Shown: positions 7,696 to 35,769 of the stretch, piece after piece
Numbering within the stretch: position 1 is the first letter of the stretch
Layout of the letters: each line of letters opens with the position of its first letter
DNA from: a candidate division WOR-3 bacterium
GTDB lineage: Bacteria > Hydrothermota > Tepidihabitantia > SM23-42
DNA: 64,000 bases
Assembly: GCA_027026255.1 (NCBI GenBank)
Contig: JALVOT010000017.1
Coordinates: forward strand, 177,670 to 241,669
Direction: 5' to 3'
Translations under genes and position numbers: made by a program
The notes under the pieces: generated by a model
What the model was told of the DNA's origin: nothing
The model's database searches: none
What the model saw: only the letters and a program-made list of their open reading frames with translations

Positions 7696-10662
7696 CTATC
7701 GAACAACAACAAATTTGCCAACCTGTTCACCGACATCAGATTGAATATGGAAGACATAAACACCGCTCGCAACCAGCTGATGATTCTCACTCAATAAATC
7801 CCATTCCTCATCGCCGCCTAAATCATTAATCACACCACCACCCGAACTCGCCTTATGACAAATTACCTTAACCAACTCACCATTCAAATTGAATATCCGT
7901 ATCGTACAATTCGAAGGCAAATTGATAAACCGCAACCGACGCCGTAAACTCGACTGCTGCCACTCGTTATGAATAATATACGGATTAGGCACCACCTTGA
8001 CATGTAAACTAAAAGTATCCACCGACGCAAATTCCCCGGGCACCGAATGAATCCTGAACAGCCCATTTGCCATCACCGGACTAAACTCCGTATTCGCATG
8101 GACCACCCAAACATCACCACTCCGCGGCAACTCATCTCCCGGCATCAACGGTCCGCCTCTTTTCAACCCCACGAGACCACCGCATATATACAGGAACTTC
8201 GTATTATACTGCGGAGCCGGACTACCATGCAACACCAGTGTATCTGAAAAACCGCGCAGCGACAGAAAACTCCAGCCATCCGCTAAAGTATCATTCAAAG
8301 GATCACCAGAAACCGGTCGATAAGGAGTAAAGTTAATCGTATCCCCGGCATTTAAATCAATCACCACCACACTGTTTGCGGTATTGCTCCCCGCTGTCGA
8401 AAACCAGTGCACCTCATAATCATTACCGCGATAAGGCCAAAAATTCCAATAATTGGCCCAGGCACCAGGTGTAGAAGGCACCAATAAACTCTCGGGATAC
8501 GAACCGGTCTTCACTTCAATCGCCTCAAATATCGACTTATCGGTCGGCAACAAATCCCGGACAAAATGTAAGCCTATACTCAAACCATTATAAACCGGAA
8601 ATGTATGCGGCACATCCAACGAATCATTAACACCAACCACCTTAATACTATCAATATGACCACCATCCGCATCCTCTAAATATCCCTTATAAAGAGGAAC
8701 AACCACAACCACCGTATCTGTATCATGAATAATTCTCACAATGCTCCAATCAATCGGCATAAGCTCCAACTGAATAATATCATCTTTCATCTCAAGCGGA
8801 TTCACAATACTCACATTAATACTATCTCCAAGCAGCTCATTACCATAAATCCGTTCCAACGAATACTCACCAGGAACTAAATTCGCCGGTTCACGCCTCG
8901 GCACAACCGGCACTCCACTCAAACCGCTCTCAAACCAGATTGGACGACCATACTCCTGACCCGACGAATCCACATCCTTTACTAAATTATAATCATAAGA
9001 AGTCACCGCATAATAATAAGTAAACCCATTGCGCACATCCTCATCCACATAAGAATGAACCAAACCCTTATCATCCGCATATATCCTTATCGATTCCGGT
9101 GCGGTCGTATCTTCAAAAACAATGTTGTTAAACAGGTCATAACGGCCAAGCAAGCTCCAGTCTCCGGTCTTCCCGGTCAAACTCTTCCAGACTCCATAAC
9201 CCTCAAAATCATACTGACGGTAAAATGTATCGGTTAAAGGCGTTCCCGGAATACTCACAATATCATAATAAGGATCAGGAGTATGTTCAGGGGCATTATC
9301 CCAAACCAGGGTCACCCGGGCATCACCGGGCACACAGGTTAAAGTCGGGGGCGGGGGCGGACCAGGCAGTAACCAGTTCTTATCATAGATAAATTGACAG
9401 GTATTATCAATATTTACCAGGGCGGTATCCGGGGTGCTGTATGTATCATGCCAGTAGGCAAGAATAATGCCGACCAGAATCGTCGCGACTGAATCCGGAG
9501 CAATGTCAAATGGTCCGCTGCACTGTAAAAACCTCTGATCATCTGGACCTGATGGTGCAGTGTCTACAAACGGCTCATAAACCATCGTCTTAAAGTTATA
9601 ACCGGCAAGGGTCACATACCGCTCATTATCCTTAGTCGGCTCAAGACTAAGTGTGAAACGTTTGAATGCGGTCATACCGAGCTGCGGTATCTCTGAAGGG
9701 TCGCGCCAGTCCGGGGTCCCATCAAGGTCAACATCCCACATTGAATCCGGCAGATTTGTTACATAATAAGAACTATCCCGTTCATACTGGTCAGGAATCC
9801 CGTCCTCATCCTTGTCCATATTCTCTTTTAAATCATAAGGACTCTGTAAATAATCATAACCGATTGTCCCGGGAAATTCACTCCAGCCGGCTTCTTTTGT
9901 ATCCTGCCATTGATAACCGAGGTTATCAACCCAGAGCGATTCTCCATCAACCACATACCATCGACCTACAATACCGGCGATGCGGTCATTGGCGCTTCCA
10001 GGGGACTCATTACCGATATCATTATCAGCACAGACCCCGAAGTAGCATTTTCGCAGGGTATCGCCTGAAACATTTCTCAACTCATATTTGATGAATATTA
10101 TATCCTGTGTTGTGCTCAAATTCCAGGCATAAACCGTTTGATAAATCACCAGACCAATCGGCCTTGTATCTCCCGGGTTATGTTGCGTTTTATCAAGGTC
10201 ATTGATTACACACCAGGAATCCTGATGAGATTTATTTTTCTGCGGCGGTTCTGCAGTGGTCCAGCCTTCAACCGGCGGGGGCCAGGTCTCAGGATACATA
10301 AAAATAATCGCATTGGGATCACTCTGGGACATACCTTTATCACCGGGGACAAATTCAGTCTCAGCGCCGGATGGACCATAACCGATTGAAACCAAGGTAT
10401 CACCGCTTGTTTGATCAATCGTTCCGAACCAGGGTCCAGCACCAAATACATAACTGTGGCGAGAACCTTTGGGCCACCATAGACCTGCTTTTTCACCCTC
10501 ACGCTGGCCAAACTTCCCAAAGTTTGAGACACACATCTCAACCTGGTTCACATTATGAACTTTTATCTGGAACTCACGACCTGCATCAGGATTTATAACC
10601 GCAGGTCGGGCTAAAGCAAAGACTACAATTGTCAAGATTGGAATTAAAACCTTCTTCATCAT
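7696..10662 (-). CDS. Large secreted protein with thrombospondin-type-3-like Ca-binding Asp-rich motifs and a T9SS C-terminal sorting domain.
   Basis: 988-aa ORF with a signal peptide. It contains DKDEDGIPDQYERD and DVDLDGTPDWRD. The C-terminal CTD is GVYVFHIQSDVGEQVGKFVVVR. Confidence 0.6.
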   Translation of the reverse strand: MMKKVLIPILTIVVFALARPAVINPDAGREFQIKVHNVNQVEMCVSNFGKFGQREGEKAGLWWPKGSRHSYVFGAGPWFGTIDQTSGDTLVSIGYGPSGAETEFVPGDKGMSQSDPNAIIFMYPETWPPPVEGWTTAEPPQKNKSHQDSWCVINDLDKTQHNPGDTRPIGLVIYQTVYAWNLSTTQDIIFIKYELRNVSGDTLRKCYFGVCADNDIGNESPGSANDRIAGIVGRWYVVDGESLWVDNLGYQWQDTKEAGWSEFPGTIGYDYLQSPYDLKENMDKDEDGIPDQYERDSSYYVTNLPDSMWDVDLDGTPDWRDPSEIPQLGMTAFKRFTLSLEPTKDNERYVTLAGYNFKTMVYEPFVDTAPSGPDDQRFLQCSGPFDIAPDSVATILVGIILAYWHDTYSTPDTALVNIDNTCQFIYDKNWLLPGPPPPPTLTCVPGDARVTLVWDNAPEHTPDPYYDIVSIPGTPLTDTFYRQYDFEGYGVWKSLTGKTGDWSLLGRYDLFNNIVFEDTTAPESIRIYADDKGLVHSYVDEDVRNGFTYYYAVTSYDYNLVKDVDSSGQEYGRPIWFESGLSGVPVVPRREPANLVPGEYSLERIYGNELLGDSINVSIVNPLEMKDDIIQLELMPIDWSIVRIIHDTDTVVVVVPLYKGYLEDADGGHIDSIKVVGVNDSLDVPHTFPVYNGLSIGLHFVRDLLPTDKSIFEAIEVKTGSYPESLLVPSTPGAWANYWNFWPYRGNDYEVHWFSTAGSNTANSVVVIDLNAGDTINFTPYRPVSGDPLNDTLADGWSFLSLRGFSDTLVLHGSPAPQYNTKFLYICGGLVGLKRGGPLMPGDELPRSGDVWVVHANTEFSPVMANGLFRIHSVPGEFASVDTFSLHVKVVPNPYIIHNEWQQSSLRRRLRFINLPSNCTIRIFNLNGELVKVICHKASSGGGVINDLGGDEEWDLLSENHQLVASGVYVFHIQSDVGEQVGKFVVVR

Positions 10663-13440: not shown

Positions 13441-14478
13441 TTACTCTACCCTGACAGGAATCAACCATACAACCGCACTATATCCCTTATTCGGGGTAAC
13501 ATAGTAATACGAATCCTTTGCAACCGCTTCAATATACAGATTTTCAATTCCCTGTCCAGTAATCACAAAACTTCCTGTTCCATCGACCAATTGCACTCTT
13601 TTCTGACCACCCAATGATACAAAGTAAAAATAATCATTTTGCAGCTCAGCGGGGGATATGCTAACCCTGGCAAACAAAGTTTCATTCGCCGGATAAGTTA
13701 ACAAAGAATCTACAGCGCGAAGTCTATTCATTGCGTGACCGGTGTAGGTAGTATCATAACTCGAATACCATACGGTATCAGAAATACCCAAATTCTCGTT
13801 ATAAAAAACTACATTATAAATAGATGCCACAACACCACCCCGATTAGGGAAATAATAGATTCCATATGAGACCCTTTTCAAAACCCATTCACGCGGTTCA
13901 ATAAGATTATTTACACTATCCCTTTTCGGCTCCAGAAAGATCAATCTTGTTCCTTCGCCAACGATATTCTTGGTCTGGTATGCCGTACCCGGACCGGGGT
14001 TTATTATCGTATCCATTGTCTTCAGCTTCATAGCGAGTGTTTCGCCGGTGCCAGGATCAATGATTACACTATCATAGTGCCCGACATATCTAATGTCCTC
14101 ATGCATCTTGGAAATTACACTAAATGTATCCCACAGATAAACCGTGCAGGTAGTATCCTTGGCATACCAGAAATCAGCGAAACGGCTGGAATCACTGATT
14201 GACAGTGCACAGCTATCAATATGCTGCTTTACGAGCGGAGAATCAACACGAAAATAACTGTCAACACCAGGAAAATCAACCGAGGGCATCGTAAACGGTA
14301 TATAGTTTTCAACAAATTGATCGACTGTATTAAGGAATTCAGGATGGGCATCAAGCTGAGCTTGAATCAGTGAATCATCTTGCGGTGTTCCGTTATAGAA
14401 TCCCTCTGGTGGTTCATTGCCGCAGGTAATAAATAACACACCCGCACCTACCAAGAGGCTCAGAAGATATCTCTTCAT
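13441..14478 (-). CDS. Lipoprotein of unknown function.
   Basis: The start is chosen at MKRYLLSLLVGAGVLFITC (signal peptide plus lipobox Cys). The ORF track's longer N-terminus would overlap the upstream gene. Confidence 0.5.
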   Translation of the reverse strand: MKRYLLSLLVGAGVLFITCGNEPPEGFYNGTPQDDSLIQAQLDAHPEFLNTVDQFVENYIPFTMPSVDFPGVDSYFRVDSPLVKQHIDSCALSISDSSRFADFWYAKDTTCTVYLWDTFSVISKMHEDIRYVGHYDSVIIDPGTGETLAMKLKTMDTIINPGPGTAYQTKNIVGEGTRLIFLEPKRDSVNNLIEPREWVLKRVSYGIYYFPNRGGVVASIYNVVFYNENLGISDTVWYSSYDTTYTGHAMNRLRAVDSLLTYPANETLFARVSISPAELQNDYFYFVSLGGQKRVQLVDGTGSFVITGQGIENLYIEAVAKDSYYYVTPNKGYSAVVWLIPVRVE

Positions 14479-14582
14479 TATTCCTCCTTTCTTCTTTTTA
14501 TTTTTATTTCTCACTACCAACGAATTTTTTATTTATCACCTCCTTGCTGAATTTTTAAATTTTTCTTCTTTACTAAAAGCAA

Positions 14583-15197
14583 TTATGGCGAACGAAGATT
14601 AAATGTCACGGGAAACGCCAATCGGACTGGAACCGGCTTATCCCGCTGTTTTGCAGGACTCCATCGGGTCTTTCTCGCTGCTGCAATAGCGGCCTCGTCC
14701 AGTAATGGGTTGCCGCTCGATTTCAGAATCCTTGCGTCGGTCACGCTTCCATCGATACCGACAATAATCATAAGAATAACTTTCCCCTCAATGCCGGCTT
14801 TCCTTGCCATCTCAGGGTATTTTGGTTTCACCGGTTTGATAAGCTTTGGTTTAACCTCCACCCGGGCATAAGGAACAACCTCAATCTCGGGACCGGTAGG
14901 AACTGTCCGAATAATATCTTCTTTAAACTCTGTTGCGGCAATCGTCTCCACCGCCTCTTCTTCAGCAACCTTTGACTCCGCCTCAACCGCAACCTTGGGT
15001 CGCTCCTTTGGAGGTGGTTCCTCATATTTATCAATCTCGGCGGAGATCTCTTCAATCATCGTCACCACTTCATGTTTCAATTTATATGGGGTAGGTTCAG
15101 AATAAGGCACAAATGCAAACAGCAAAATAAAAATAACAAGACTGGCAAATATTCCGGTGCGCAGATATACCCCATATAAGAGTTTATGATCACGCAT
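14583..15197 (-). CDS. tonB: TonB-like energy transducer with a C-terminal TonB domain.
   Basis: 204-aa ORF with an N-terminal TM helix and a Pro/Glu/Lys-rich linker (EEPPPKERPKVAVEAE). The C-terminal region is KPKYPEMARKAGIEGKVILMIIVGIDGSV. Confidence 0.65.
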   Translation of the reverse strand: MRDHKLLYGVYLRTGIFASLVIFILLFAFVPYSEPTPYKLKHEVVTMIEEISAEIDKYEEPPPKERPKVAVEAESKVAEEEAVETIAATEFKEDIIRTVPTGPEIEVVPYARVEVKPKLIKPVKPKYPEMARKAGIEGKVILMIIVGIDGSVTDARILKSSGNPLLDEAAIAAARKTRWSPAKQRDKPVPVRLAFPVTFNLRSP

Positions 15198-15199
15198 TC

Positions 15200-15616
15200 T
15201 TACCTCCTGAATTCAGTGGCAAAAGTAATCTTAAATGCCTTCGCCTCTTTCAGTTGATCAAGCACCTTATCAACCGTTCCATAATTCACCACTTCATCAA
15301 CATTCAGGATTGTAATAAGTTCTGGATTCTCCAAAACCTTGGGCCTCATCTTATCAGCAATCACCTGAGGTGAGATTAAATTATCATCAATATATATCTT
15401 ACTGTTATTATCAATCCAGATATGGCTGACATTTCTGCGCATTAAAATTCGTTCTGTAGACATCGCCTGCGGCAAACGGATGTTTAGATGGAGTCGGGTC
15501 GCCCTGAAAACCGTCGTCACCATAAAAAAGAGGATAAGCAAAAATGCGATATCTGCTGTCGAAGCCGTAGGGATTTCCGGTGTCTGTGTAAAGCGTCTAA
15601 TAATACTCTTTCTCAT
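15200..15616 (-). CDS. exbD: ExbD/TolR-family protein, second copy.
   Basis: 138-aa ORF with a single N-terminal TM (IAFLLILFFMVTTVF). Its size and topology are typical of ExbD. Confidence 0.65.
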   Translation of the reverse strand: MRKSIIRRFTQTPEIPTASTADIAFLLILFFMVTTVFRATRLHLNIRLPQAMSTERILMRRNVSHIWIDNNSKIYIDDNLISPQVIADKMRPKVLENPELITILNVDEVVNYGTVDKVLDQLKEAKAFKITFATEFRR

Positions 15617-16089
15617 TATTTCTTCTCCCCACTGGCCGGAATAAGACTTATCTTCTTGGCTCGAACCTCCCGGCCATCAGGCATCGTTACCTTACACAAT
15701 TTAATCTGATCCAGAACCGCAATCATATTTTTATATGGAGCCTCTTTACTGGCACGCAGCGAAACAACCAGCAGGGTATCCCGTTCACGCAGACGTTCTT
15801 CAACAATTTGCCGTATCTTATCATAATCATCCGATTTTATAATTTCATCATAGCCTACGGTCTTTACCTTCACCTCACCAGCCGGGTTGATTGCAATCGT
15901 AACAATATTTTCCTTCACCACCTTAACCTTCTGTTCCTTTTTTGTCTTTTCTGGCAAAAGCATCTTCAGACCTTTATCCCGGGTAAACACCGTGGAGGTA
16001 AGAAAGAATATCAAAATCAAAAACGCCACATCCCCCATTGATGCGGTAGGGATAGCGGGCGGATTTTTTTTCTTTTCTTTTAATTTCAT
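15616..16089 (-). CDS. exbD: ExbD/TolR-family protein, first copy.
   Basis: 157-aa ORF with an N-terminal TM (MGDVAFLILIFFLTSTVF). Translationally coupled to its neighbours. Confidence 0.7.
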   Translation of the reverse strand: MKLKEKKKNPPAIPTASMGDVAFLILIFFLTSTVFTRDKGLKMLLPEKTKKEQKVKVVKENIVTIAINPAGEVKVKTVGYDEIIKSDDYDKIRQIVEERLRERDTLLVVSLRASKEAPYKNMIAVLDQIKLCKVTMPDGREVRAKKISLIPASGEKK

Positions 16090-16093
16090 TATT

Positions 16094-16732
16094 TCATTTC
16101 TTCCTCTTGGGATATTGTTCGATCAAATAATCAATCAAACCACTTGCTGCCTCCTCCATATCCCTGGTATAACCATCCACCTTGCCGCTAAAGAGGATAT
16201 GGATAATCGCCAGAGGTGCAGCAATAATCAATCCCCATTTTGTGGTGATAAGTGCGGTTGAAATTCCGCTGGCAACAACCGTAGGTTCTACCTCACCAGC
16301 CCGCGCGATTGCTGCAAATGCGGTAATCATACCCATAACTGTCCCCAGAAATCCTAAAAAAGGCGCCACGGTGGTAAGACCGGCGAGTAATGCCATCCCG
16401 CGATCAAGAAAACCGAGTTCGGTTGCTGCACTGCGGGTAACCATCTCCTCCATCGCATCCTTTCCCTGATGCGCTTTTTCCAGGACTGAACGCAAAATTT
16501 TGGCTACCGGAGCCGCGGTCTGATCACAAAGTGCAATACCGGCATTAATTCCCTGTGAATCTATTATCGATATTAAACGCTCTAAAAATCCCCGGGGGTT
16601 AAGTCGTGCCTTGATAAAAAGGCTGTATAATCTCTCCAGAATCAATGCAACACCAAGTATCGCACACACCAATAAAAACCACATTGCAAAACCACCACCA
16701 CCTTCTGTCCCCAATTGGAATTCCCTTATCAT
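16094..16732 (-). CDS. exbB: MotA/TolQ/ExbB proton-channel family protein.
   Basis: 212-aa ORF with three TM helices. The C-terminal TM region LTTVAPFLGFLGTVMGMITAF is typical of ExbB/TolQ. Confidence 0.75.
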   Translation of the reverse strand: MIREFQLGTEGGGGFAMWFLLVCAILGVALILERLYSLFIKARLNPRGFLERLISIIDSQGINAGIALCDQTAAPVAKILRSVLEKAHQGKDAMEEMVTRSAATELGFLDRGMALLAGLTTVAPFLGFLGTVMGMITAFAAIARAGEVEPTVVASGISTALITTKWGLIIAAPLAIIHILFSGKVDGYTRDMEEAASGLIDYLIEQYPKRKK

Positions 16733-16785
16733 ACCTATCCTCCTTTCGTTTTTTTGCCTTTAATAAAAATTAATAAACAACAGTG

Positions 16786-16813
16786 AATTATATTAAAAAT
16801 TTCATAAATGTCA
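16786..16813 (-). promoter_or_regulatory. Sigma70-type promoter for the exbB-exbD-exbD-tonB unit, internal to the long minus-strand array.
   Basis: On the minus strand: TTGACA - 16 nt - TATAAT. A 5'UTR of about 50 nt follows, with a GAAAGGAGG Shine-Dalgarno. Confidence 0.6.
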
Positions 16814-16865
16814 AGAGTAAAAAACCTCATATTATCACCGATTTTTTGACTTAAGTCTTGTTCGG

Positions 16866-17216
16866 TTATCTTGAACTCGCGGTGTAATAGAGAAGCCCTC
16901 CGATAAGAGAAAAGATACCGGCACCCAAGAGAAAAAGACTCTCAATCCGGGCAAGATTCAGTGAACCGATAATCAAATCAAACAGGTTCGAGGGACCAGC
17001 GGTTCCCAGTAGAGGAAAGTAAAAAAGCATTCGGTAAATATGGAAAATCGCCAGGACGATTAAAAAAACTCCGCCGATAATCGGTAATATCCAGATCCCT
17101 TTGCCCTGAATCAGGATAAGAAGTCTTTTTATTATCAACCCATAAATCAAAAGAGCTGCTACGGTCAATAATATTGCAACGATGAAAAGTATCTCAGCCG
17201 GTATGTCTGCCTTCAT
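16866..17216 (-). CDS. Small polytopic membrane protein.
   Basis: 116-aa ORF consisting almost entirely of 3-4 hydrophobic helices. Confidence 0.5.
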   Translation of the reverse strand: MKADIPAEILFIVAILLTVAALLIYGLIIKRLLILIQGKGIWILPIIGGVFLIVLAIFHIYRMLFYFPLLGTAGPSNLFDLIIGSLNLARIESLFLLGAGIFSLIGGLLYYTASSR

Positions 17217-17243
17217 AAAACCTCCTTTTAAGACACAACAATT

Positions 17244-17615
17244 CTATTTACCTCTTGTAACTGCGTAAAATCTGAGATTGGCAACCAGCGAAAGAACCCC
17301 GGAGATAAAGAAAAACCCATAAGCAAGATAGTTAACCCCGGCCTTCGGCAACATTATCCTTCCACCAATACCGCAATAAAAAAGTTGAATAATCGCAAAG
17401 ATAAGGATACCCGTAGGTGCAATAATCATAAACTGCCAGTCTGTATGCTCACCCAGGACAATCTCATAGCGTCGGGCGATTATCCCCAAGAAGATGAAGG
17501 CAAGCCATAAAAGAACTGCTCCGAGTATAAGAAGAAAGTTGGGGACAACCGCCAGGGAATGATAGGTGTCCGGGTCCATTCCAAATGGCGCCATAATCAA
17601 CATAATCTGTAGCAT
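17244..17615 (-). CDS. Small polytopic membrane protein.
   Basis: 123-aa ORF with 4 predicted TM helices. Confidence 0.5.
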   Translation of the reverse strand: MLQIMLIMAPFGMDPDTYHSLAVVPNFLLILGAVLLWLAFIFLGIIARRYEIVLGEHTDWQFMIIAPTGILIFAIIQLFYCGIGGRIMLPKAGVNYLAYGFFFISGVLSLVANLRFYAVTRGK

Positions 17616-17649
17616 AAAACCTCCTGAAAATTTAAATAAATTTTTTAAT

Positions 17650-18234
17650 TCACTTCACAAGTTCTAATAATTTATTTGTCAAACTGGCTCCCCGGGATGG
17701 TCCGATAACCATACCTGCAGCCTTACCCAGGGCAAAGATAAAACGTCGGATATCATCCTCATATAGTTCATCAGGATTTATCTTCTGGGTCTTCAATTGA
17801 TTTTTATAGATTCTTTCTGTAAAATCCCCCAAGTAATCACTCATAACGGCCTTGATTTTATCCAGAAGTTCCGGACCCATTACCGACCCGGGTTTTTCTT
17901 CAGCTTCAGCTTCCGGCTTTCCTTTCAGTTCCTCAAGCAGGTTATAAAGTTGAGAAACATCCAGCCCGGCTCTGGAATCAAAAAGGGTTCCCACCAGAAA
18001 ATCATCTTCAAACTCTATAATTAAGGACTTCTTCTCACCCAGTATCTCCAGGGTATCAATCTTCACATCACCCACTGCATTGATTGTCTCAAAGAGCACA
18101 GTCGCGGTATGGGAAAATTTTTCAATCAGTGCCTCACCAGAACCGGTAGTGGAAACCTCACCGGAACTGGTTGCCGTAAAAGGACAGGGAAGTCCCCGGG
18201 ATTCAATCTTTTCCAATATATCTCTTTCTATCAT
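17650..18234 (-). CDS. Roadblock/LC7 (MglB-like) domain protein.
   Basis: 194-aa ORF. The N-terminal roughly 110 aa have the roadblock-like alternation, and an acidic C-terminal extension follows. The assignment comes from pattern and context, not from strict motifs. Confidence 0.4.
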   Translation of the reverse strand: MIERDILEKIESRGLPCPFTATSSGEVSTTGSGEALIEKFSHTATVLFETINAVGDVKIDTLEILGEKKSLIIEFEDDFLVGTLFDSRAGLDVSQLYNLLEELKGKPEAEAEEKPGSVMGPELLDKIKAVMSDYLGDFTERIYKNQLKTQKINPDELYEDDIRRFIFALGKAAGMVIGPSRGASLTNKLLELVK

Positions 18235-18914
18235 TTCATCCTTTCAATAACCGCCTGAACCTTAGCTCTTGCCTGGGATGAACCCATCTCTTCAACCGCC
18301 TCCTTTACCAGAAAGTCTATGATTGTGCGCAGTCCTTTAAGAAAATCTTCTTCTTTATCCTCAGGAGGTTTACTCTTAAAGACAAGTTTATTCTCAACAA
18401 TACCAACGAAAGGAAGCAAATCACCGGCGAACACAGTCAACCCCTTATTTAGACAATCAAGCCAATGTTTCAGATTTCCCTCACCGCCGAATTCACTCAC
18501 CAGAAGATTAATCTGACGCAGCTTGGAACTGAGACTTCGGGGAATCTCAGTCTTTGATTTTTCCTCTACCTCTACCTTTTTCTCTATCTCTACCTTTTCC
18601 TCTGCCTTCTTCCCGGCATCAGCCCGGATTCTTTCGATTATTGCCCGGGGATTGGCCTCGGCTTTAATCTCAAGACCAAGATATTTTGATTCATACAAAA
18701 AGATTAACAGCCGATTGCCGCCGTAATTGAATAATATGTATTTAATCTCACCAAGCTCCAGACTATTCTTTATCACCTCACCGGCTGATGAAAAAAAGGC
18801 GGTCAGGTCACCCAGAGGTCGGGATGAAGAACCCTTGACCTCTTCAACCGAACCATCCTCAGCATTGACAACCGCATACCCCAAAACCTCAACAATCTTA
18901 TCCAGTATCTCCAT
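18231..18914 (-). CDS. Roadblock/LC7 (MglB-like) domain protein.
   Basis: 227-aa ORF. The N-terminal region MEILDKIVEVLGYAVVNAEDGSVEEVKGS...GNRLLIFLYESKYLGLEIKAEANP resembles the LC7/roadblock fold. A charged C-terminal tail follows. Confidence 0.45.
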   Translation of the reverse strand: MEILDKIVEVLGYAVVNAEDGSVEEVKGSSSRPLGDLTAFFSSAGEVIKNSLELGEIKYILFNYGGNRLLIFLYESKYLGLEIKAEANPRAIIERIRADAGKKAEEKVEIEKKVEVEEKSKTEIPRSLSSKLRQINLLVSEFGGEGNLKHWLDCLNKGLTVFAGDLLPFVGIVENKLVFKSKPPEDKEEDFLKGLRTIIDFLVKEAVEEMGSSQARAKVQAVIERMK

Positions 18915-18916
18915 CG

Positions 18917-19762
18917 CTATTTTTCATTCTTCAACTTGTTGTTAAACTCTTCATATTTCTTTTTAAAAAGTAATTTGCCGTAGAGTTTTTGCCCTTCTTT
19001 TTTGAGGAACTGATTAAAATCCTTGAAAAAGTGTTCAATAATATCCTGCCCCACCTTGGCTCCAACCTTAATCTCTAAATATTCCTGCTCAATATGAAGG
19101 GCATTAAAGAGTGCTTTATTTTTCTCATCCAGTTCTGCCCACCGCTTTAACCAGTTGAATCCATTCTTCTTGAAGACCTCAAAAAACCTTTCCAGATAAT
19201 TTACCACCTTTGCCATCACCCGTTCCGCCTCTTTGGGGTCATAAATCAAACCCTTCTCCTTTAACCAGACAATGGTTTTGACCGCCTCATATCCTCCAAT
19301 CTTTGAACCGGCAATAACCTCGGCCAAACTCTTTTTACCATCAATAAGGGCGAGAACCTGCCAGTCGGTTCTTCTTAAAGCAACTGCAGATTCTAATTCC
19401 TTTGTTGACTTGGTGAGCACCGCGTCCATTGGGGGCAGATTATCTTTTATCTTCTGAAATTCAATACGCCGTTTTTCAATCCTTTCCCTTAACTTCCCCA
19501 CCCCTACGGAAATTGTCTGTTGCGGAGGTTCCACCCCGACATCAAAAGCCGCCTTTTCCGCCTCAATAAAAGAAAGATTGATTAACGCCTCCATCCCTTC
19601 CCGGGAACCGTCTGTAGCATGAACAACAAGCCCGTCCTTTAAAAATATCTCACCACCAATATTACCGAGCACCCTCAAAACCCCGGTCTTTTTAACCCGG
19701 CTGAGAAATTCCAGGACATCACCAAGTTTGAATTCCTGAAGGTCAATTTCAAAACAGGACAC
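18917..19762 (-). CDS. DUF4388-domain protein.
   Basis: 281-aa ORF. Its N-terminus (FKLGDVLEFLSRVKKTGVLRVLGNIGGEIFLKDGLVVHATDGSREGMEALINL) matches the DUF4388 pattern (G-L-x-x-F-x-L-x-D-L-L-Q-x-L ... G-x-L ... G-x-I-x-F-x-x-G). Confidence 0.6.
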   Translation of the reverse strand: MSCFEIDLQEFKLGDVLEFLSRVKKTGVLRVLGNIGGEIFLKDGLVVHATDGSREGMEALINLSFIEAEKAAFDVGVEPPQQTISVGVGKLRERIEKRRIEFQKIKDNLPPMDAVLTKSTKELESAVALRRTDWQVLALIDGKKSLAEVIAGSKIGGYEAVKTIVWLKEKGLIYDPKEAERVMAKVVNYLERFFEVFKKNGFNWLKRWAELDEKNKALFNALHIEQEYLEIKVGAKVGQDIIEHFFKDFNQFLKKEGQKLYGKLLFKKKYEEFNNKLKNEK

Positions 19763-20376
19763 TATATTATCCCCAACCAGTTATGAAGCAGAAAATAGAC
19801 CCGGCCGATTAAAAGGGAGATTCGCGCCATTACGGTATAACCAAATGAAGCACCAAATGAAACCATCATAAACCAGATTCCCACTTTTGCAGCAAAACCT
19901 AAGGTTCCTTTATGCTCCTTGGAAAAATAGAAATATATTAATGTAAAAACAACCCCGGCAATGATAAGAAGATTGGAAAAGACCTTGAATGGATGAATCC
20001 CGGCCAGGGGCAAAAATGTCGCCTGAAGTTGAGGCAGGATATCGCCTTGAATAATCTGGGTGATAAAAAGGGCCATTGAAATTCCCATCGTAAAGGTAAG
20101 GGGAATTCTTACCAACCAGCTCAGCTTTGGGATAAAAGGGGCAAACATCAAAAGTCCAATGATAATTGGAATAAGATAGACCATATTACCTTTGACAATC
20201 AGGGGTTCAAACAGATTGGGCCAGGCAAAATCAAACCAGAGAATCACTGCCCAATATCCTGCAGAAATACCAACAAAGATATGCTCGGCAACCTTATAAA
20301 ATGGGTTATCCTTATATAAAAATGAATAGATTGCCAGGGTCAAAAGGGAAGCAATCCAGACACCCAGAACCTCCAT
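19762..20376 (-). CDS. Polytopic membrane protein. Paralogue of 1334..1975.
   Basis: 204 aa; see the reciprocal alignment at 1334..1975. Confidence 0.65.
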   Translation of the reverse strand: MEVLGVWIASLLTLAIYSFLYKDNPFYKVAEHIFVGISAGYWAVILWFDFAWPNLFEPLIVKGNMVYLIPIIIGLLMFAPFIPKLSWLVRIPLTFTMGISMALFITQIIQGDILPQLQATFLPLAGIHPFKVFSNLLIIAGVVFTLIYFYFSKEHKGTLGFAAKVGIWFMMVSFGASFGYTVMARISLLIGRVYFLLHNWLGII

Positions 20377-21209
20377 TACCGTTTACTCCTTTGATAAACG
20401 AGAATCACATTTCCCAGAATAATAAATAGAACAAGCAGTGCATGAACAATTGACTGGGAATCCATACCGGCAAGTGCTCGACCCCTTCTTTTAACCAGGG
20501 TTTCATATTCCGCAGCACCCTTTAATCCACCCATAAGCCCCACCAACTGTCCTGATGCAAGATATGGATATTGCTGGGGAGCCATAATCGCTGTGGTTGC
20601 TGCACAGACCGGAATCCCGAATCGGGCGTGGAAATAGATAATCCAGTGCAGGACCCCGGGATCACCGGCTGATAAACTCATCACCAGCGCCATATCCCGG
20701 GCCGACTTCACCTCTTTACCCAGGGGCAAAGAATCGATCGGCACTCCAGCATAATCAGTTTTAACCATATCACCGACATTTTTCCCTAGGCTGAGCAGCA
20801 TCACCGGACCGCCTGGTTTATATCCTACATTAATATAATCAACTCCATACTTTTTATTGTAATGTGCCCCGATATTTTCCAATGCCATATTACCCAGGGG
20901 AGTTCCTGCGGGCCATAATGCAAGCATAAAGATGCGTAGATTTTTTCGAAAGCAGTGTTCAAGAAATGCCTCGGTTGCAGGATAAAGTTCCGCCTCACTT
21001 CCCGGGTCATAATCAATGGAAACAACCACCACCGAACCTTCAGGCAGGGACTCTACTTTATCATATATATTCTTAACCGGCTTTGTAATATCCACGGGCA
21101 GACCGATCGGGATAAGCAGCGGAACAATTACTGCAACGGCAACCAATAAAAAGATAATTCTTCGATCTAAAGCGGACAATCGGGCAAGTATATTATTCAC
21201 CTGCCCCAT
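20376..21209 (-). CDS. Bitopic membrane protein. Paralogue of 474..1337.
   Basis: The start is trimmed to the Met (MGQVNNILARL...) whose ATG overlaps the upstream stop. This is the same coupling as in the + strand copy. Confidence 0.6.
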   Translation of the reverse strand: MGQVNNILARLSALDRRIIFLLVAVAVIVPLLIPIGLPVDITKPVKNIYDKVESLPEGSVVVVSIDYDPGSEAELYPATEAFLEHCFRKNLRIFMLALWPAGTPLGNMALENIGAHYNKKYGVDYINVGYKPGGPVMLLSLGKNVGDMVKTDYAGVPIDSLPLGKEVKSARDMALVMSLSAGDPGVLHWIIYFHARFGIPVCAATTAIMAPQQYPYLASGQLVGLMGGLKGAAEYETLVKRRGRALAGMDSQSIVHALLVLFIILGNVILVYQRSKR

Positions 21210-21210
21210 A

Positions 21211-21834
21211 CTACTCCTTACCTCCGCCCATATAACTTCTCTCAATCCCTAATAAGACCCTCAAGCCCATAGAAATCATACCCAGGTCAATACCGAATAG
21301 AATTCCCCTTTTTGCTGCGGTATTGGGAACAGTCATTATCCATTCAACCAGATTGGGAAATCCATGCCAGATCCAGTAACCGATTGGAACCCGGCCGATC
21401 ATTACAAGCACGGCGGCAATCAAAAGCAGGGTCGCCTCAGGACTTCTGGCTCGAAACGCCCGAAATGCTGCTGAGGCGACAAAGAACGCCAGCAGTGAAA
21501 ACATCGTCGCACCCAAGGGAATCTGAACATTTTTGTAAAAATATAAAAACAATCCACCTTCGGGTCCGCCGATAAAACCGGCTGCCATCATAACCAGGAG
21601 GCAGATTAAAAGAATGATGCTGTACTGCCAATCCCTTAATCTTCTCTGAATCTTTTCAAGATTTATCTTAATGATATTAAATATTCCGATAAAGATAAAG
21701 AATGCCATCACCCCAATATACCAGTTCTGAAAGGTCTGGGATGTATCCTGAATTCCTTTCAAGGGAATAAAGAAACTTACCAGCATAAAGAAACCAAATC
21801 CAAAAACCACGATTATCGGTAAAATACTTTTCAT
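21211..21834 (-). CDS. Polytopic membrane protein. Paralogue of 1..477.
   Basis: 207 aa with 5-6 TM helices. Confidence 0.65.
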   Translation of the reverse strand: MKSILPIIVVFGFGFFMLVSFFIPLKGIQDTSQTFQNWYIGVMAFFIFIGIFNIIKINLEKIQRRLRDWQYSIILLICLLVMMAAGFIGGPEGGLFLYFYKNVQIPLGATMFSLLAFFVASAAFRAFRARSPEATLLLIAAVLVMIGRVPIGYWIWHGFPNLVEWIMTVPNTAAKRGILFGIDLGMISMGLRVLLGIERSYMGGGKE

Positions 21835-22913
21835 TATCTTGTTGTCTTAAAAAGGTTATAAAAATATTGATTGCCTAAGAGTCTTGTAATAACGCCAATC
21901 ACAATCACCAGAATAAATATCAGTTTGCCAAAATCCTGTCCTTTTAAAGAGCCAATTTGAATCGGTTCCTGGGATAGATAGGCACTTGCCGCATAAAGCT
22001 CTTCACCGAGCAGGGTGTAATCACAGGCCGCCACGAAGAATGGTAATTGATCAGGCATCGCCGTTCCTGCAATCTGGATTGCGCCGGTATAATGTCCGGT
22101 CTCAGCCAGAATGAGTGATTCTGCATAAAAGCAGCCGAGATAGAGATTGGTTGCCGGTTTCTCTCGAACCATCATACCATCCACCGCAGAGACATAACCG
22201 AACTGGTCGTCAGTAAGATACCGGATATTATCGGCATTAAACCAGTCAGGTCTTCCCACCTTGGTCGCTGACTCTTTAACTACCTGCTGCGCCATACTCA
22301 TCGCCATCGCCTTACTGGTCGGCACATAAAGTGGGGTGCCGTATTCTGCAGTCTTTTCCGCAACCCTGGCAAGGATACTCATCGCGGCAATGGTCTGGGG
22401 ATTATCGATATCCATTATCCCGGGGACAAACAGCACCGGCTTACCCATCTCAGTCGCCCGACCGATCGCCTCTTCGACCGCTGTAAGGGCTGGAATCTTT
22501 CTGATGTATAACTTTTCACCCTTGCGGGCACGGGAAATGTAGAAAAGAATTACGGCGAACAGGATAATCATACAGACGGCAATATTCAGACGGCCAAGAT
22601 TGAAAATCTGGGCAATCGGCCTTACCGGCCCCGCAGTATTTGAAAAAAACACCGTATCCAATCCGGCGCCTTTGATGCGATAATAATATTTAGTTCCGGC
22701 CTTTACCGCGGTATCCACATAGGTTGTCTTACCCGATTCAACCCGGGCGATCTCTTTAAAATCATGCTCCGGGAAGATACTGCGCAGGATTTGATAACTA
22801 CTTATTAATGTATCACTACTCCAGGACAGTGTAATACTGGAACCGTCGTCATTGGGTGTATCATAAACATCAAGACTTATCCCCTGCACCAGTATTAATA
22901 ATATCAAAAACAT
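21834..22913 (-). CDS. Membrane protein with an N-terminal fibronectin-III-like domain, two TM segments and a central domain of about 200 aa. First gene of the long minus-strand array.
   Basis: 359-aa ORF. The FN3-like region is SITLSWSS...YYYRIKGAG, followed by a TM helix LNIAVCMIILFAVILFYI. A leaderless sigma70 promoter lies immediately upstream. Confidence 0.5.
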   Translation of the reverse strand: MFLILLILVQGISLDVYDTPNDDGSSITLSWSSDTLISSYQILRSIFPEHDFKEIARVESGKTTYVDTAVKAGTKYYYRIKGAGLDTVFFSNTAGPVRPIAQIFNLGRLNIAVCMIILFAVILFYISRARKGEKLYIRKIPALTAVEEAIGRATEMGKPVLFVPGIMDIDNPQTIAAMSILARVAEKTAEYGTPLYVPTSKAMAMSMAQQVVKESATKVGRPDWFNADNIRYLTDDQFGYVSAVDGMMVREKPATNLYLGCFYAESLILAETGHYTGAIQIAGTAMPDQLPFFVAACDYTLLGEELYAASAYLSQEPIQIGSLKGQDFGKLIFILVIVIGVITRLLGNQYFYNLFKTTR

Positions 22914-22959: not shown

Positions 22960-23364
22960 CTTACTCCTCTCCACTTTTTTCATTGTGCCTCCCGGATTAA
23001 TTGCAACGGTATTCTGGACAGAATAAATTTCCCTGAGATTATTAAACCAGGACGAAAAATACTCAACAACTTCGTTTTACTTTTTTATATTATTTTATTG
23101 GTCATTTGAAAAATTTCTCTACCATCTTTACTTGGTCCCATTTTCTCAGCGCGGACGGCATTTCCATTTTCTCAGCGCGGGCGGCGTTTCCATTTTTCTC
23201 AGCGCGGGCGGCGTTTCTCATTTTTCTCAGCGCGGGCGGCGTCCCCGCCGCCCGCTGGAGGTTTATCATTCCTGCAGCCCGCCAGGCGCCCTGCCTCGGG
23301 ACGGGACGCCCCCCGGCTATATTGTACTTACAAAAAGCCGGGACAAAAAGTGGAGGGAAATCAG
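22960..23364 (+). repeat. Repeat element copy A. It is full length and carries four 27-bp tandem units.
   Basis: Left terminal inverted repeat (TIR) CTTACTCCTCTCCACTTTTT, right TIR AAAAAGTGGAGGGAAATCAG. Internally, TTTTCTCAGCGCGGGCGGCGTTTCCAT-type units repeat four times and end in the hairpin GCGGGCGGC-gtcccc-GCCGCCCGC. Confidence 0.85.
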
Positions 23365-25862: not shown

Positions 25863-26897
25863 TCAATATAGTGCAATTCTTTCTTTTAAAAACTCGGGTG
25901 AAAGTTTACCTTCCGACACCAATCTCCTTTTTGACTGTTCAAGGTTTTGCATGCCAAACTGACGCCCGGTCTGGATTACCGATTCAATCTGATGTACCTT
26001 TTCCTCACGAATCAGATTGCGCACCGATTGGGTTGCAATCATAATTTCAAATGCCGCAACCCGACCGGAGCTGTCCCGGCGTGGATATAGCCTCTGGGCA
26101 ATCACCGCCTGCAGTGATTCAGAAAGTTGCAGCCTGATTTGATTCTTCTGACCGGCAGGGAAGATATCAATTATTCTTGTGATGGTCTTGGCGGCGCTTG
26201 ATGTGTGCAGGGTAGCAAAAACTAAATGGCCGGTCTCAGCCGCGGTCAGGGCAAGTGAGATTGTCTCCAAATCCCGCATCTCACCGACCAGAATATAATC
26301 AGGGTCCTGACGCAGGGCGCTTCTTAAGGCAATAGAAAAAGAGTGAGCATTGGTTCCCAATTCCCGTTGATTAACCACACATTTTTTTGAATGATGGATA
26401 TACTCAATCGGGTCCTCGATTGTGATAATATGACCTTCTTTATTAGAGTTTAGAAAATCAATCATCGCTGCCAATGTGGTAGATTTACCACTGCCGGTGG
26501 GTCCGGTAACAAGTATTAAACCATAATCAAGATTAATCACTTCTTTAATTATTCTGGGGAGCCCGATCTCTTCCATATCAGGAATTTTTGTCGGAATGAT
26601 TCTAAAGACGGCAGCCAGACCCTGCCTCTGATAAAATACATTCACCCGGAATCTTCCCAATCCAGAAAATTCTAAGGAAAAATCAATCTCCCTGGTCTTT
26701 TGCAATTCTACTTTTTGGCTTTCTGACAAAATCTGATTGATAAACATTTCGATGATTTCATTATCAAGTAATTCTTTATTCAGCGGCTGCATCCGACCAC
26801 ATACCCTCAGCATAATCGGAGAACCGGCGCTGAGATGGAGGTCACTCGCCTTCTGCTCAACTGAATATCCAAGTAATTCCCTGATATCATTCTTCAT
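25863..26897 (-). CDS. pilT: Type IV pilus retraction ATPase PilT.
   Basis: 344-aa ORF with the Walker A motif GPTGSGKSTT and PilT-type length and signature regions. Confidence 0.9.
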   Translation of the reverse strand: MKNDIRELLGYSVEQKASDLHLSAGSPIMLRVCGRMQPLNKELLDNEIIEMFINQILSESQKVELQKTREIDFSLEFSGLGRFRVNVFYQRQGLAAVFRIIPTKIPDMEEIGLPRIIKEVINLDYGLILVTGPTGSGKSTTLAAMIDFLNSNKEGHIITIEDPIEYIHHSKKCVVNQRELGTNAHSFSIALRSALRQDPDYILVGEMRDLETISLALTAAETGHLVFATLHTSSAAKTITRIIDIFPAGQKNQIRLQLSESLQAVIAQRLYPRRDSSGRVAAFEIMIATQSVRNLIREEKVHQIESVIQTGRQFGMQNLEQSKRRLVSEGKLSPEFLKERIALY

Positions 26898-27468
26898 ATT
26901 GTTTCTCCAATTCGATTATAATCTTCACATTCCCCTTCTTTTTTTGTTTACCATCTTTATCTTCAATCTCAATGACCGCCTGGTCGGCTCGTATCTCAAT
27001 CCTTTGCCTCTGTTTAATCGAGGTTTCAATTACCGCCTCCGTCCCTTTATGAAGAAAAAATTTATTGAGTATTTGTTCAATCTTAGCCGGGTCTGCCCCG
27101 GATACTACTACATCTTTATTGAGAGTCTTTTTAATTTTTTCAATAACCGAAATATTCGTCGGGTCACCGATAACTACATAAATCTTGTTCTCGGTCTGAT
27201 AAAGCGGCAGGATGCAGTTGTCCAGTAAAAGTTTTTCAGGGAATTTACTGATTAATTGATTATCGAACATCTCCGGATTCAATTGAACAAAAGGGATATC
27301 CGCCTGTTCACTCAACATCCAGAAAAGATCACTCGAAGATATATAGCCCAGTTCAATCAAAATTTCACCGAGGCGTTTTCCTTTCTCTTTCTGTAATTTC
27401 AAAGCGGTATCAAGCTGTTCCTGAGTAATAATTCCATACTTCACCATCATCTCACCCAGAAGAAACAT
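26887..27468 (-). CDS. Stand-alone T2SSE_N/MshEN-like domain protein (putative c-di-GMP receptor).
   Basis: 193-aa ORF with tandem 24-residue motifs YGIITQEQLDTALKLQ and RLGEILIELGYISSSDLFWMLSEQ. These match the MshEN consensus RLGxxLLxxGLLxxxxLxxxLxxQ. Confidence 0.65.
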   Translation of the reverse strand: MFLLGEMMVKYGIITQEQLDTALKLQKEKGKRLGEILIELGYISSSDLFWMLSEQADIPFVQLNPEMFDNQLISKFPEKLLLDNCILPLYQTENKIYVVIGDPTNISVIEKIKKTLNKDVVVSGADPAKIEQILNKFFLHKGTEAVIETSIKQRQRIEIRADQAVIEIEDKDGKQKKKGNVKIIIELEKQYEE

Positions 27469-27470: not shown

Positions 27471-27830
27471 CTATACCCCTATCAATTCAAAGACCTTGGA
27501 CTTCAAGGCACTGATATCAATCGGCTTGGTGATAAATGCCGCAACATCCGAAGTCTTAACCACCATATCATCTTCCATCAAACGATAGGCTGAGCATATA
27601 ATAATAGGAATATTCTTATTCCTTTCCCTTATCCGTTCAATCGCCTCAAGACCATGGGTCCCCGGCATCTTGATATCAATAATGAGCAGGTCAAATGATT
27701 CCCGGGTAATAAGTTTCACCGCCTCCCGACCATCAACCGCCTCACTTATGTCATAGTCATCTCCTAAGGTTTCCCTTAACAGGAGTCGAATCGACTCCTC
27801 ATCATCACAGACCAAAATCCTTTTCTTCAT
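27471..27830 (-). CDS. Single-domain response regulator (CheY-like receiver).
   Basis: 119-aa ORF with the receiver-domain residues DD...D...K (ILVCDDEESIR, LLIIDIKMPG, ITKP). Confidence 0.85.
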   Translation of the reverse strand: MKKRILVCDDEESIRLLLRETLGDDYDISEAVDGREAVKLITRESFDLLIIDIKMPGTHGLEAIERIRERNKNIPIIICSAYRLMEDDMVVKTSDVAAFITKPIDISALKSKVFELIGV

Positions 27831-29442: not shown

Positions 29443-29470
29443 ATTATAACTAAATTTTTTAATTTGTCAA
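29443..29470 (-). promoter_or_regulatory. Sigma70-type promoter in front of the kinase gene.
   Basis: On the minus strand: TTGACA - 16 nt - TATAAT. A GC hairpin (29487..29510) lies just upstream. Confidence 0.5.
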
Positions 29471-29564
29471 TGCCCAATAATATCCCGGGCCGGGGTGTGT
29501 GCCCCGGCCCAAAAGGAGAAGGTAGAAAAATATACATCTGCTGACCACCTTTACAGGAATCCCG

Positions 29565-30842
29565 TTACATTCGTAAAAAGGCTTTTACAACCGTTGGGTC
29601 AAGTTGTGTACCCGCTACCCTTTGTAATTCCTTTTTTGCTTCGATTCTACTGAACCGCTTCCGATACGGCCGATCACTTATCATTGCTGAATATGTATCA
29701 CACACTGAAAGAATCCTGGCATTTAACGGTATACGATTTCCCTTGAGTCCTGCAGGATAACCTCGACCATCCCAGCGTTCATGATGATAATGAATCCAGG
29801 AACGGATCGACTGCAGTTGAACCAAGGGTTCAATAATTCTGGCACTCTTTTCTGGATGCTGTTTTATTATCTTCCACTCATTATCACTAAGTGGTCCAGG
29901 CTTCTGTAAAATACTTTCAGGCACGGCAATCTTTCCAACATCATGGAGCAGTCCTGCATATCTGATTAACTGCAGTTCCCGTTCTGAAAAATCGAACGCC
30001 TTGCCCAGCTGAAATGACAGATTGGCGACCTGAAGTGAATGTCCCCTTGTGTAGCTGTCTCTAATCTCGATTGCCTGCACCAGGGCAAGCACCGACTCAA
30101 AATTCACCTCCTCTAATCTTTTAATAAACCGCTCCCGGTCAAGGGCAATTCCGATCTGTCTGCTGATACCGTTAATAAACTGAATTTCTTCTTTATTATA
30201 AGAAAACCGTTTATTAGAATACAATGTCAGAATCCCGACCGGGACTCCTCCCTTGGTGATTACCGGTGCAGCAATACAGGACTTAAATTGACCGACCAGG
30301 TCTCCATCATCTTTAAATAACAAAGGACCGCGATTATTCAGAATCGACTGCAGCAATCGCTCTTTTTGATTAATAATTATATTTTGAGAAAACTCCGGCT
30401 CAAGATTTTGCGATACAAGAAGATTTAAATTCCTGCCGTCCTTATTTATTACAAAAAGGCCGATTCCATCCGGGGACAGATTCTTTGACAGTTTCTCCAT
30501 AACCACATTCATTACACCATTATTACTAAAACTGGAAAGTATGGCCTGATCTACCTCCTGCAGGGATTTTAAACGCACCAGACTTTCTTGATGTTCCCTA
30601 ACCATCCTTAGAATAGCAACTATACCAATCAACCAGAGAATACTAATCCCGGAGAGACAGAAATTCAATAATAGATTAGTACTGTGTCTTCCATAGCCGC
30701 CTTCTATCCCTATCAACACCATAAATATCATCCCCAAGGCAATAAATATCCGGGCAATTCCCAGCCTCTTTCTAACCCGCAACAGGATAAATATACCGAT
30801 TGCCAATTCCAGGATAATTGAGATAAAAAAGGCTGACTTCAT
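29565..30842 (-). CDS. Membrane-anchored GAF-domain HD-GYP phosphodiesterase (c-di-GMP hydrolase).
   Basis: 425-aa ORF. The HD-GYP core is IRDSYTRGHSLQVANLS...LLHDVGKIAVPESIL...HHERWDGRGYP. Confidence 0.85.
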   Translation of the reverse strand: MKSAFFISIILELAIGIFILLRVRKRLGIARIFIALGMIFMVLIGIEGGYGRHSTNLLLNFCLSGISILWLIGIVAILRMVREHQESLVRLKSLQEVDQAILSSFSNNGVMNVVMEKLSKNLSPDGIGLFVINKDGRNLNLLVSQNLEPEFSQNIIINQKERLLQSILNNRGPLLFKDDGDLVGQFKSCIAAPVITKGGVPVGILTLYSNKRFSYNKEEIQFINGISRQIGIALDRERFIKRLEEVNFESVLALVQAIEIRDSYTRGHSLQVANLSFQLGKAFDFSERELQLIRYAGLLHDVGKIAVPESILQKPGPLSDNEWKIIKQHPEKSARIIEPLVQLQSIRSWIHYHHERWDGRGYPAGLKGNRIPLNARILSVCDTYSAMISDRPYRKRFSRIEAKKELQRVAGTQLDPTVVKAFLRM

Positions 30843-35398: not shown

Positions 35399-35769
35399 TT
35401 AACTCCTCTCCATTTTTTTCATTGTGCCTCCCGGATTAATTGCAACGGTATTCTGGACAGAATAAACTTCTCTGAGATTATTAAACCAAGACGAAAAATA
35501 TTCAACAACTTCGTTTTACTTTGTATTTATTTGTCATTTGAAAAATTTCTCTACCATCTTCGCCCGGTTCCGTTTTTCTCAGCGTGGGCGGCGTCCCCGT
35601 TTTTTTCAGCGCGGGCGGCGTTTCCATTTTTTTCAGCGCGGGCGGCGTCCCCGCCGCCCGCTGGAGGTTTATCATTCTTACAGCCCGCCAGGCGCCCTGT
35701 CTCGGGGCGGGACGCCCCCGGCTATATTGTACTTACAAAAAACCGGGACAAAAAGTGGAGGAAAGTCAG
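35399..35769 (+). repeat. Repeat element copy B. It is full length and carries three tandem units.
   Basis: Left TIR ..AACTCCTCTCCATTTTTTT and right TIR AAAAAGTGGAGGAAAGTCAG. The internal sequence is about 90% identical to copy A. Confidence 0.85.

Follow-up and report, generated by a model that had tools for sequence, protein, structure and literature searches.

A stand-alone MshEN protein encoded next to pilT in a candidate division WOR-3 bacterium

Genes at the locus

The stretch of DNA analysed in this study, called the window, comprises 64,000 nucleotides (nt) of contig JALVOT010000017.1 from a candidate division WOR-3 bacterium. The subject is a minus strand gene that encodes a stand-alone MshEN domain, the cyclic di-GMP (c-di-GMP) binding module of pilus extension ATPases such as MshE, and that lies directly upstream of pilT, the gene for the pilus retraction ATPase. 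The genes and signals around it are as follows.

26887..27468, minus strand: stand-alone MshEN gene with an ATG start, encoding 193 amino acids (aa) with MshEN_N, MshEN_C and a C-terminal tail; identified from the open reading frame (ORF), PF05157, NF053729, an AlphaFold2 (AF2) model and Foldseek
25863..26897, minus strand: pilT, encoding a retraction-type ATPase of 344 aa; TIGR01420, 475.7 bits with a cut-off of 319
27471..27830, minus strand: receiver-only response regulator of 119 aa; PF00072, 90.4 bits
27827..29410, minus strand: membrane-bound PAS histidine kinase of 527 aa; HisKA, HATPase_c and PAS matches
29443..29470, minus strand: promoter-like site TTGACA-16-TATAAT, a 12/12 consensus match from a consensus scan only, 33 nt upstream of the kinase start
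29483..29514, minus strand: terminator-like hairpin of 13 pairs (9 G-C), a pattern match only, following the HD-GYP gene
29565..30842, minus strand: membrane-anchored GAF and HD-GYP protein of 425 aa in its own transcription unit; PF13487 (HD_5), 142.9 bits, and a GAF match

The initial annotation, made from the letters alone, had placed a free-standing MshEN gene at exactly these coordinates, and inspection of the ORF excluded any upstream extension. The Pfam MshEN profile (PF05157), proposed at the time as a check on the assignment, matched residues 57-141 (E=1.1e-13, 51.4 bits, gathering score 23.1). The 53-residue NCBIfam model NF053729 ('c-di-GMP_motif, MshE-related') matched residues 4-55 at 71 bits with a cut-off of 38, so that both profiles exceeded their curated cut-offs. 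MshEN was the sole Pfam match above threshold in the protein; PilZ, EAL and GGDEF domains were searched for with Pfam and did not reach threshold. The ATPase profile PF00437 (T2SSE) did not match, the polypeptide stops at residue 193, and the match to TIGR02538 was limited to the N-terminal 171 positions. The protein therefore lacks the ATPase domain, as had been supposed, and because of this lack it is not PilB, MshE or GspE.

The assignment of the neighbouring gene to pilT was borne out as well. The product scores above the TIGR01420 cut-off, has its own N-terminal domain and contains no N1/MshEN domain, which identifies it as a member of the PilT/PilU family and agrees with the original statement that this PilT carries no MshEN domain. 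Its Walker A motif (132-140), Walker B/Asp box (198-209), His box (223-231) and SVRNLIRE motif (291-298) are intact.

The first description of the domain and locus overlooked the conserved C-terminal tail of the protein. It also overlooked the genes for the histidine kinase and the receiver and, further upstream, that for the HD-GYP protein. Histidine kinase, receiver, MshEN and PilT genes are arranged head-to-tail in this order on the minus strand. Kinase and receiver genes overlap by 4 nt, the receiver stop lies 2 nt ahead of the MshEN start, and the MshEN stop overlaps the pilT start by 11 nt. MshEN is the third gene of this four-gene operon, in which it shares a transcript and is coupled in translation with the gene for a canonical PilT. 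The kinase has its H-box (HEIRNP) at 327 and five transmembrane-like segments, and the receiver has all of its phospho-acceptor residues (Asp9/Asp10, Asp52, Ser80 and Lys102).

The terminator-like hairpin sits between the HD-GYP gene and the four-gene operon, which by consensus match has a promoter of its own. The HD-GYP protein has three transmembrane-like segments, and since its HD and GYP motifs (HDVGK at 300, HHERWDGRGYP at 353) are intact it is a putative c-di-GMP phosphodiesterase. An Rfam search at gathering thresholds found three transfer RNAs in the window and nothing else, so that neither a riboswitch for c-di-GMP nor any other RNA element was seen beside the operon.

The c-di-GMP-binding motifs

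MshEN domains bind c-di-GMP through two tandem 24-residue motifs with a 5-residue spacer. The consensus used here is (R/K/L)LGxx(L/V/I)(L/V/I)xxG(L/V/I)(L/V/I)xxxxLxxxLxxQ, and the reference protein is Vibrio cholerae MshE (VcMshE; PDB 5HTL).

27391..27462, minus strand: motif I, residues 3-26, LLGEMMVKYGIITQEQLDTALKLQ, aligned to VcMshE residues 9-32
27376-27390, minus strand: 5-residue linker KEKGK between motif I and motif II
27304..27375, minus strand: motif II, residues 32-55, RLGEILIELGYISSSDLFWMLSEQ, aligned to VcMshE residues 38-61

The initial annotation quoted the string of motif II and reported a match of both copies to the 24-residue motif. The match holds for the extended consensus, and the Leu and Gln positions are kept. 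The conventional opening Arg does not hold for motif I, which begins with Leu, a residue within the extended consensus, and has Met at position 6. Motif II has Tyr at position 11, where a published version of the motif also accepts Phe.

Aligned with VcMshE, the window protein is identical at 11/12 ligand-contact positions. The corresponding residues are listed here.

L4 and G5: VcMshE L10 and G11
L19, L23 and Q26: VcMshE L25, L29 and Q32
R32, L33 and G34: VcMshE R38, L39 and G40
L48, L52 and Q55: VcMshE L54, L58 and Q61
D102: VcMshE D108
L3: VcMshE R9, the sole deviation among the contact positions

Conservation was examined in an alignment of 113 homologs. Gly5 was kept in 110/110 sequences, and Gly34, Leu19, Leu23, Leu48, Gln26 and Gln55 in 113/113. 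Position 1 of motif II was R or K throughout (113/113), the spacer was 5 aa long in 109/113, and the Asp102 position was D in 108/113. The first position of motif I was variable across the family (R71, L21, M13, K2, F1). A missing PF05157 match and loss of the Arg, Leu and Gln motif residues had been named at the outset as outcomes that would count against the domain, and neither occurred. Because the contact Gly, Leu and Gln positions are invariant across the homologs, the MshEN match is not a chance match.

One may ask whether this is a structural N1 domain that does not bind the ligand, like that of Xanthomonas XpsE, and that serves only as a scaffold. Motif I lacks the consensus Arg, and many MshEN domains have lost binding (Wang et al. 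2016, PMC5013675). In the same study changes of Arg9 in VcMshE altered affinity less than 5-fold, while the hydrophobic and Gly positions were critical. Work on Thermus thermophilus PilF widened the consensus to (R/K/L)LG..., and the K167L variant of its GSPII-B domain, with Leu at motif position 1, had raised affinity and a dissociation constant (KD) of 2 nM (PMC11731258). Leu3 in place of Arg is for this reason considered harmless. The alignment revealed no XpsE-type disruptive substitution in the window protein at the positions listed by Wang et al. (G11, I19, L29, R38, G40, L54, L58 and Q61). The NF053729 score lies far above its cut-off, and the motifs fall in the region of the protein that is conserved best. 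We therefore regard a scaffold that does not bind c-di-GMP as very unlikely, and would expect the protein to bind c-di-GMP with sub-micromolar affinity.

Predicted structure and the C-terminal tail

The protein was modelled with AF2 using 113 homologs. The model has a mean predicted local distance difference test score (pLDDT) of 85 and a predicted template modelling score (pTM) of 0.65. It places a four-helix bundle at residues 4-55, an alpha/beta subdomain at residues 59-148 and two long strands thereafter.

27046..27300, minus strand: MshEN_C (T2SSE_N1) alpha/beta subdomain, residues 57-141, the extent of the PF05157 match, including Asp102
26908..27006, minus strand: family-specific C-terminal tail, residues 155-187, modelled by AF2 as a two-stranded beta-hairpin

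The secondary structure elements of the MshEN_C region are E86-91, E95-100, H106-115, E119-124 and H127-148. With Foldseek the top match was c-di-GMP-bound MshE (5HTL), with a TM-score of 0.81 and a root-mean-square deviation of 2.6 Å over 138 columns, followed by a match to c-di-GMP-bound PilF GSPII-B (8PDK) with a TM-score of 0.80. The modelling that had been suggested as a further check thus gave the fold of ligand-bound MshE. The protein is a bona fide MshEN domain, with all of the defining features that can be assessed computationally.

The modelled tail consists of strands E155-170 and E173-187, has mean pLDDT values of 69-83 in blocks of 10 residues, and had no significant structural match in Foldseek. 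Ala164 and Gly173, the latter at the modelled turn, are nearly invariant across the family. In the tail sequence, IEIRADQAVIEIE...VKIIIELE, hydrophobic and charged residues alternate, which would give the hairpin one hydrophobic face in need of a partner. The tail is found in every PilT-adjacent member and is missing from paralogs of 146-154 aa.

The protein family

About 130 relatives, counted as clusters at 90% identity, came out of a word-index search. Their length is 191-205 aa in nearly every case and 150-155 aa in a few, and PF05157 is the only domain in all of them. The named members come from metagenome-assembled genomes (MAGs) of WOR-3 and Candidatus Stahlbacteria. In the 113-sequence alignment MshEN_N had a mean pairwise identity of 63.5% and MshEN_C one of 55%; the tail reached 34% and the linker that precedes it 19%. 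The highest identity, in MshEN_N, points to the strongest selection on the ligand-binding bundle.

An exhaustive HMMER scan of 1.84 billion representatives gave 30,588 MshEN-containing proteins, of which only about 6 matched the family profile from end to end including the tail. The family is a small clade inside a very large domain family.

Many of the members are labelled 'type IV pilus assembly protein PilB' by the Joint Genome Institute (JGI). This label raises the question of whether the gene is an artefact of annotation or assembly, a fragment of a disrupted pilB. More than 110 clusters share the length of 191-205 aa and come from independent assemblies. The downstream gene encodes a full-length PilT ATPase that includes an N-terminal domain as well as an AIRNLIRE-type motif, and not the C-terminus of a PilB. 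Constant family length and the complete PilT rule out a pilB fragment; this explanation is effectively refuted, its probability negligible, and the PilB label is a mis-annotation for the members of about 195 aa.

Conservation of the gene pair

Gene order was compared in the window and 27 further distinct loci with a family member of about 195 aa, 28 loci in total, which were annotated by BLAST against the window proteins. These loci come from WOR-3, Stahlbacteria and unclassified MAGs. PilT directly follows MshEN in 28/28, mostly with overlapping or nearly abutting codons. In 27/28 the gene immediately before MshEN encodes a homolog of the 119-aa receiver, the exception being locus L016. Among the 27 related loci, 22 have an ortholog of the kinase upstream and 14 have an HD-GYP gene within the fetched flanks.

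The exhaustive HMMER scan also yielded a distant lineage, P0246 and P0269, with proteins of 196-197 aa that are 29% identical to the window protein. They have a C-terminal extension of similar length and keep the turn glycine. Both directly precede PilT-family genes (2/2 loci; TIGR01420 507 and 481 bits) whose products are 55-56% identical to the window PilT. The genes overlap by ATGA in 1/2 loci, and kinase and receiver are present in 0/2. A word-index search with P0246 found only one further member, and among 313 metagenome stretches that matched the search patterns, 0 encoded a relative.

WOR-3-related genomes also contain tail-less, MshEN-only paralogs of 146-154 aa, one of which (L028) shares a MAG with the cassette locus L016. 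The tail-bearing proteins adjoin pilT in 30/30 cases whereas the tail-less paralogs are near pilT in 0/7. The 7 tail-less genes are followed by a DUF6982 protein in 2 cases and by an esterase in 1.

DUF6982 (PF22478) occurs in several of the genomes compared here. The window encodes a 147-aa member at 59695-60138 (plus strand). On one TA06 DG_78 contig, which has four copies, members directly follow tail-less MshEN paralogs of 146-154 aa twice. Members in the related loci lie at 4371-5377 in locus L033, at 7989-9017 in locus L030 and at 5771-6178 in locus L009, the last of them downstream of the cassette PilT. DUF6982 may be a second MshEN partner family.

The receiver gene, 2 nt upstream of MshEN in the window and conserved in 27/28 loci, suggests a different role, in which the phosphorylated receiver binds MshEN as a split version of an MshEN-REC protein. 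The pair would then integrate c-di-GMP and phosphorylation signals on behalf of some other target, with PilT as a mere co-transcribed passenger in the operon. MshEN-REC and REC-MshEN-T2SSE fusions do exist (Wang et al. 2016, Supplementary Table 4). However, the P0246/P0269 lineage and locus L016 keep MshEN with PilT without a receiver or kinase, so that PilT is invariant while the receiver is not, and no gene for an alternative target is conserved nearby. We consider it improbable that MshEN is the output partner for the two-component system and PilT merely a passenger. Since the MshEN-PilT pair persists without kinase and receiver (loci L016, L085 and L087), PilT is taken as the core partner. 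The fused REC-MshEN-T2SSE and MshEN-REC proteins in the same Supplementary Table nonetheless argue for a functional link among receiver, MshEN and ATPase modules.

In locus L024 the cassette kinase is replaced by a 722-aa REC-T2SSE_N1-T2SSE ATPase of the PilB/GspE type, whose gene is transcribed divergently (4202-6370, minus strand). This ATPase has a tetracysteine motif and is without RLG...Q c-di-GMP motifs. At this locus the c-di-GMP motifs are confined to the free MshEN protein beside PilT.

A free MshEN protein of another kind is P0240 (215 aa), which has an extra MshEN_N in addition to a full MshEN and whose gene directly precedes two genes for PilB-like ATPases and one that resembles pilC. 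Loci of this type are JGI 3300042731 and L086 (1305-1952). Their context indicates that detached MshEN proteins are of several kinds and also accompany extension motors.

P0240 bears on the possibility that the window protein is a decoy or competitor. A free N1/MshEN domain would occupy the docking site of PilB at the pilus base (PilM, PilC or a GspL-like protein) and block extension, either when bound to c-di-GMP or when unbound; it would be co-expressed with PilT only since both favour retraction. The P0240 loci show that free MshEN is not restricted to PilT. MshEN_C has the T2SSE_N1 fold, by which GspL is bound in type II secretion systems, with weak Foldseek matches to 2BH1 and 4PHT, and a review relays the hypothesis that the N1 domain of PilF engages components of the inner-membrane platform (PMC11656802). 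On the other side, a decoy leaves unexplained why the tail-bearing form is constantly adjacent to pilT (30/30, often with overlapping codons) while the tail-less form is not, and neither the cassette nor the window contains pilB, pilM or pilC. We feel that a decoy is unlikely.

A model for the MshEN protein

We consider it fairly probable that the protein is a c-di-GMP receptor subunit that acts on PilT in trans, in line with the suggestion of a trans-acting sensor made when the gene was first noted. The free-standing cytoplasmic protein would bind c-di-GMP via MshEN_N and associate with PilT, probably via the tail and/or MshEN_C, the tail being the most plausible contact. PilB, MshE and GspE have their regulatory N1 domain in cis; PilT would in this way gain one in trans. 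The level of c-di-GMP would then influence pilus retraction or the access of PilT to the base of the pilus. The adjacent HD-GYP enzyme could set this level locally, and the cognate kinase and receiver could add a phosphorylation input.

A more far-reaching version is put forward only tentatively. The tail-bearing stand-alone MshEN proteins might form a dedicated class of c-di-GMP-dependent PilT accessory subunits whose tail docks on the PilT hexamer, with c-di-GMP and the phosphorylated receiver deciding whether PilT engages the pilus base.

Several points weigh against a receptor subunit for PilT. The identity of the domain, its fold and motif conservation, the structure of the operon and the conserved pairing of the genes are shown directly; that the protein binds c-di-GMP, that it touches PilT and whether it activates or inhibits are the parts of the model that we infer, and the sign of regulation is not predictable from the data. 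Membership in an operon can reflect co-regulation rather than binding. The pLDDT of the tail is about 60-83, a moderate confidence only, and its role is a guess. The P0246/P0269 lineage has K or N rather than Gly at motif position 10, so that some members may lack c-di-GMP binding. When the 150 best MshEN-containing representatives were compared with the window PilT by BLAST, no MshEN-PilT fusion was found; the matches were confined to ATPase cores of the PilB type, with identities of about 30-45%. A motif scan of the ORFs for GGDEF, PilZ-like and prepilin signatures detected no diguanylate cyclase or other pilus gene in the 64-kb window, and pilus function in these uncultured hosts is presumed.

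Other features of the window

Por_Secre_tail, the C-terminal sorting domain of type IX secretion, is present on three large proteins, all encoded on the minus strand (2041-3840, 3856-6465 and 60484-63375). One of these is a gingipain-like C25 peptidase and one is an LVIVD-repeat protein. Because three window proteins bear this domain, the organism may well have a type IX secretion system. A 359-aa protein (21834-22913, minus strand) matches DUF6754 very strongly (393 bits), and its gene is the last in a long series of same-strand genes (13441-22913).

A G+C-rich unit of about 27 nt, TTTTCTCAGCGCGGGCGGCGTTTCCAT, forms head-to-tail arrays of 2-4 copies on the plus strand at 23141-23242, 35570-35653 and 46692-46744, with single copies on the same strand near 44996 and 54344. 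The core of the unit has 11 matches in the window, where 0 are expected. The copies are contiguous and without spacers, which excludes a CRISPR array. The unit may be a dispersed repeat specific to this genome.

Comparison with known systems

The closest known counterparts are the MshEN domain of MshE from V. cholerae and the GSPII domains of PilF from T. thermophilus (5HTL, 8PDK). They share with the window protein the two 24-residue motifs, the 5-residue spacer, and the four-helix bundle followed by an alpha/beta subdomain, and the common theme is control of type IV pili by c-di-GMP. In MshE, PilB and PilF the MshEN domain lies in cis, on one chain with an extension ATPase, whereas the window protein is a separate polypeptide with an added tail, paired with the retraction ATPase PilT. 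The MshEN domain itself is well known, and the function proposed here rests on what can be read from genomes.

The statement in the initial annotation that MshEN domains are normally fused to GspE or PilB is oversimplified. MshEN proteins without an ATPase are already known in many architectures (Wang et al. 2016, Supplementary Table 4), among them Pseudomonas aeruginosa PA3740. PA3740, with MshEN_N and a highly diverged N1 domain, resembles the window protein as a non-ATPase protein with an MshEN c-di-GMP motif. By its description it is set apart by the degenerate N1 domain and by having no reported pairing with PilT.

Two proteins, Geobacter Gmet_3473 (REC-MshEN-T2SSE) and Glov_2262 (MshEN-REC), bring together the receiver, MshEN and secretion-superfamily ATPase modules that are also found at this locus (Wang et al. 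2016). These are single fused proteins, whereas the window has three adjacent genes and an ATPase of the PilT type. The ATPase of the fused architectures is one that we take to be of the PilB/GspE type.

The FimX-PilZ-PilB system of Xanthomonas and Pseudomonas is alike in principle: a separate c-di-GMP receptor regulates a pilus motor in trans, at or near its N-terminal domain (PDB 7LKM). The receptor folds are EAL/GGDEF and PilZ, without homology to the window MshEN, and the target is the extension motor PilB, so the resemblance is functional only.

In the literature searched, most of it outside subscription journals, we found no description of a stand-alone MshEN protein beside PilT, of an MshEN receptor dedicated to PilT, or of a kinase-receiver-MshEN-PilT cassette, and no c-di-GMP receptor for the retraction motor. 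In the characterised cases that we found, c-di-GMP acts on type IV pili via the extension ATPase, either in cis (the MshEN of MshE, PilB and PilF) or in trans (FimX-PilZ). The regulation of retraction by PilT is poorly understood. An MshEN receptor that is always paired with pilT and wired to a two-component system and an HD-GYP enzyme would offer a specific path, open to experiment, by which a second messenger could control retraction, and would indicate that the regulatory N1 module of pilus motors can work as a detachable subunit. A class of MshEN proteins that docks on PilT, if it exists, would be the first c-di-GMP receptor for a retraction motor and the mirror image of the MshEN domains that act in cis in extension motors.

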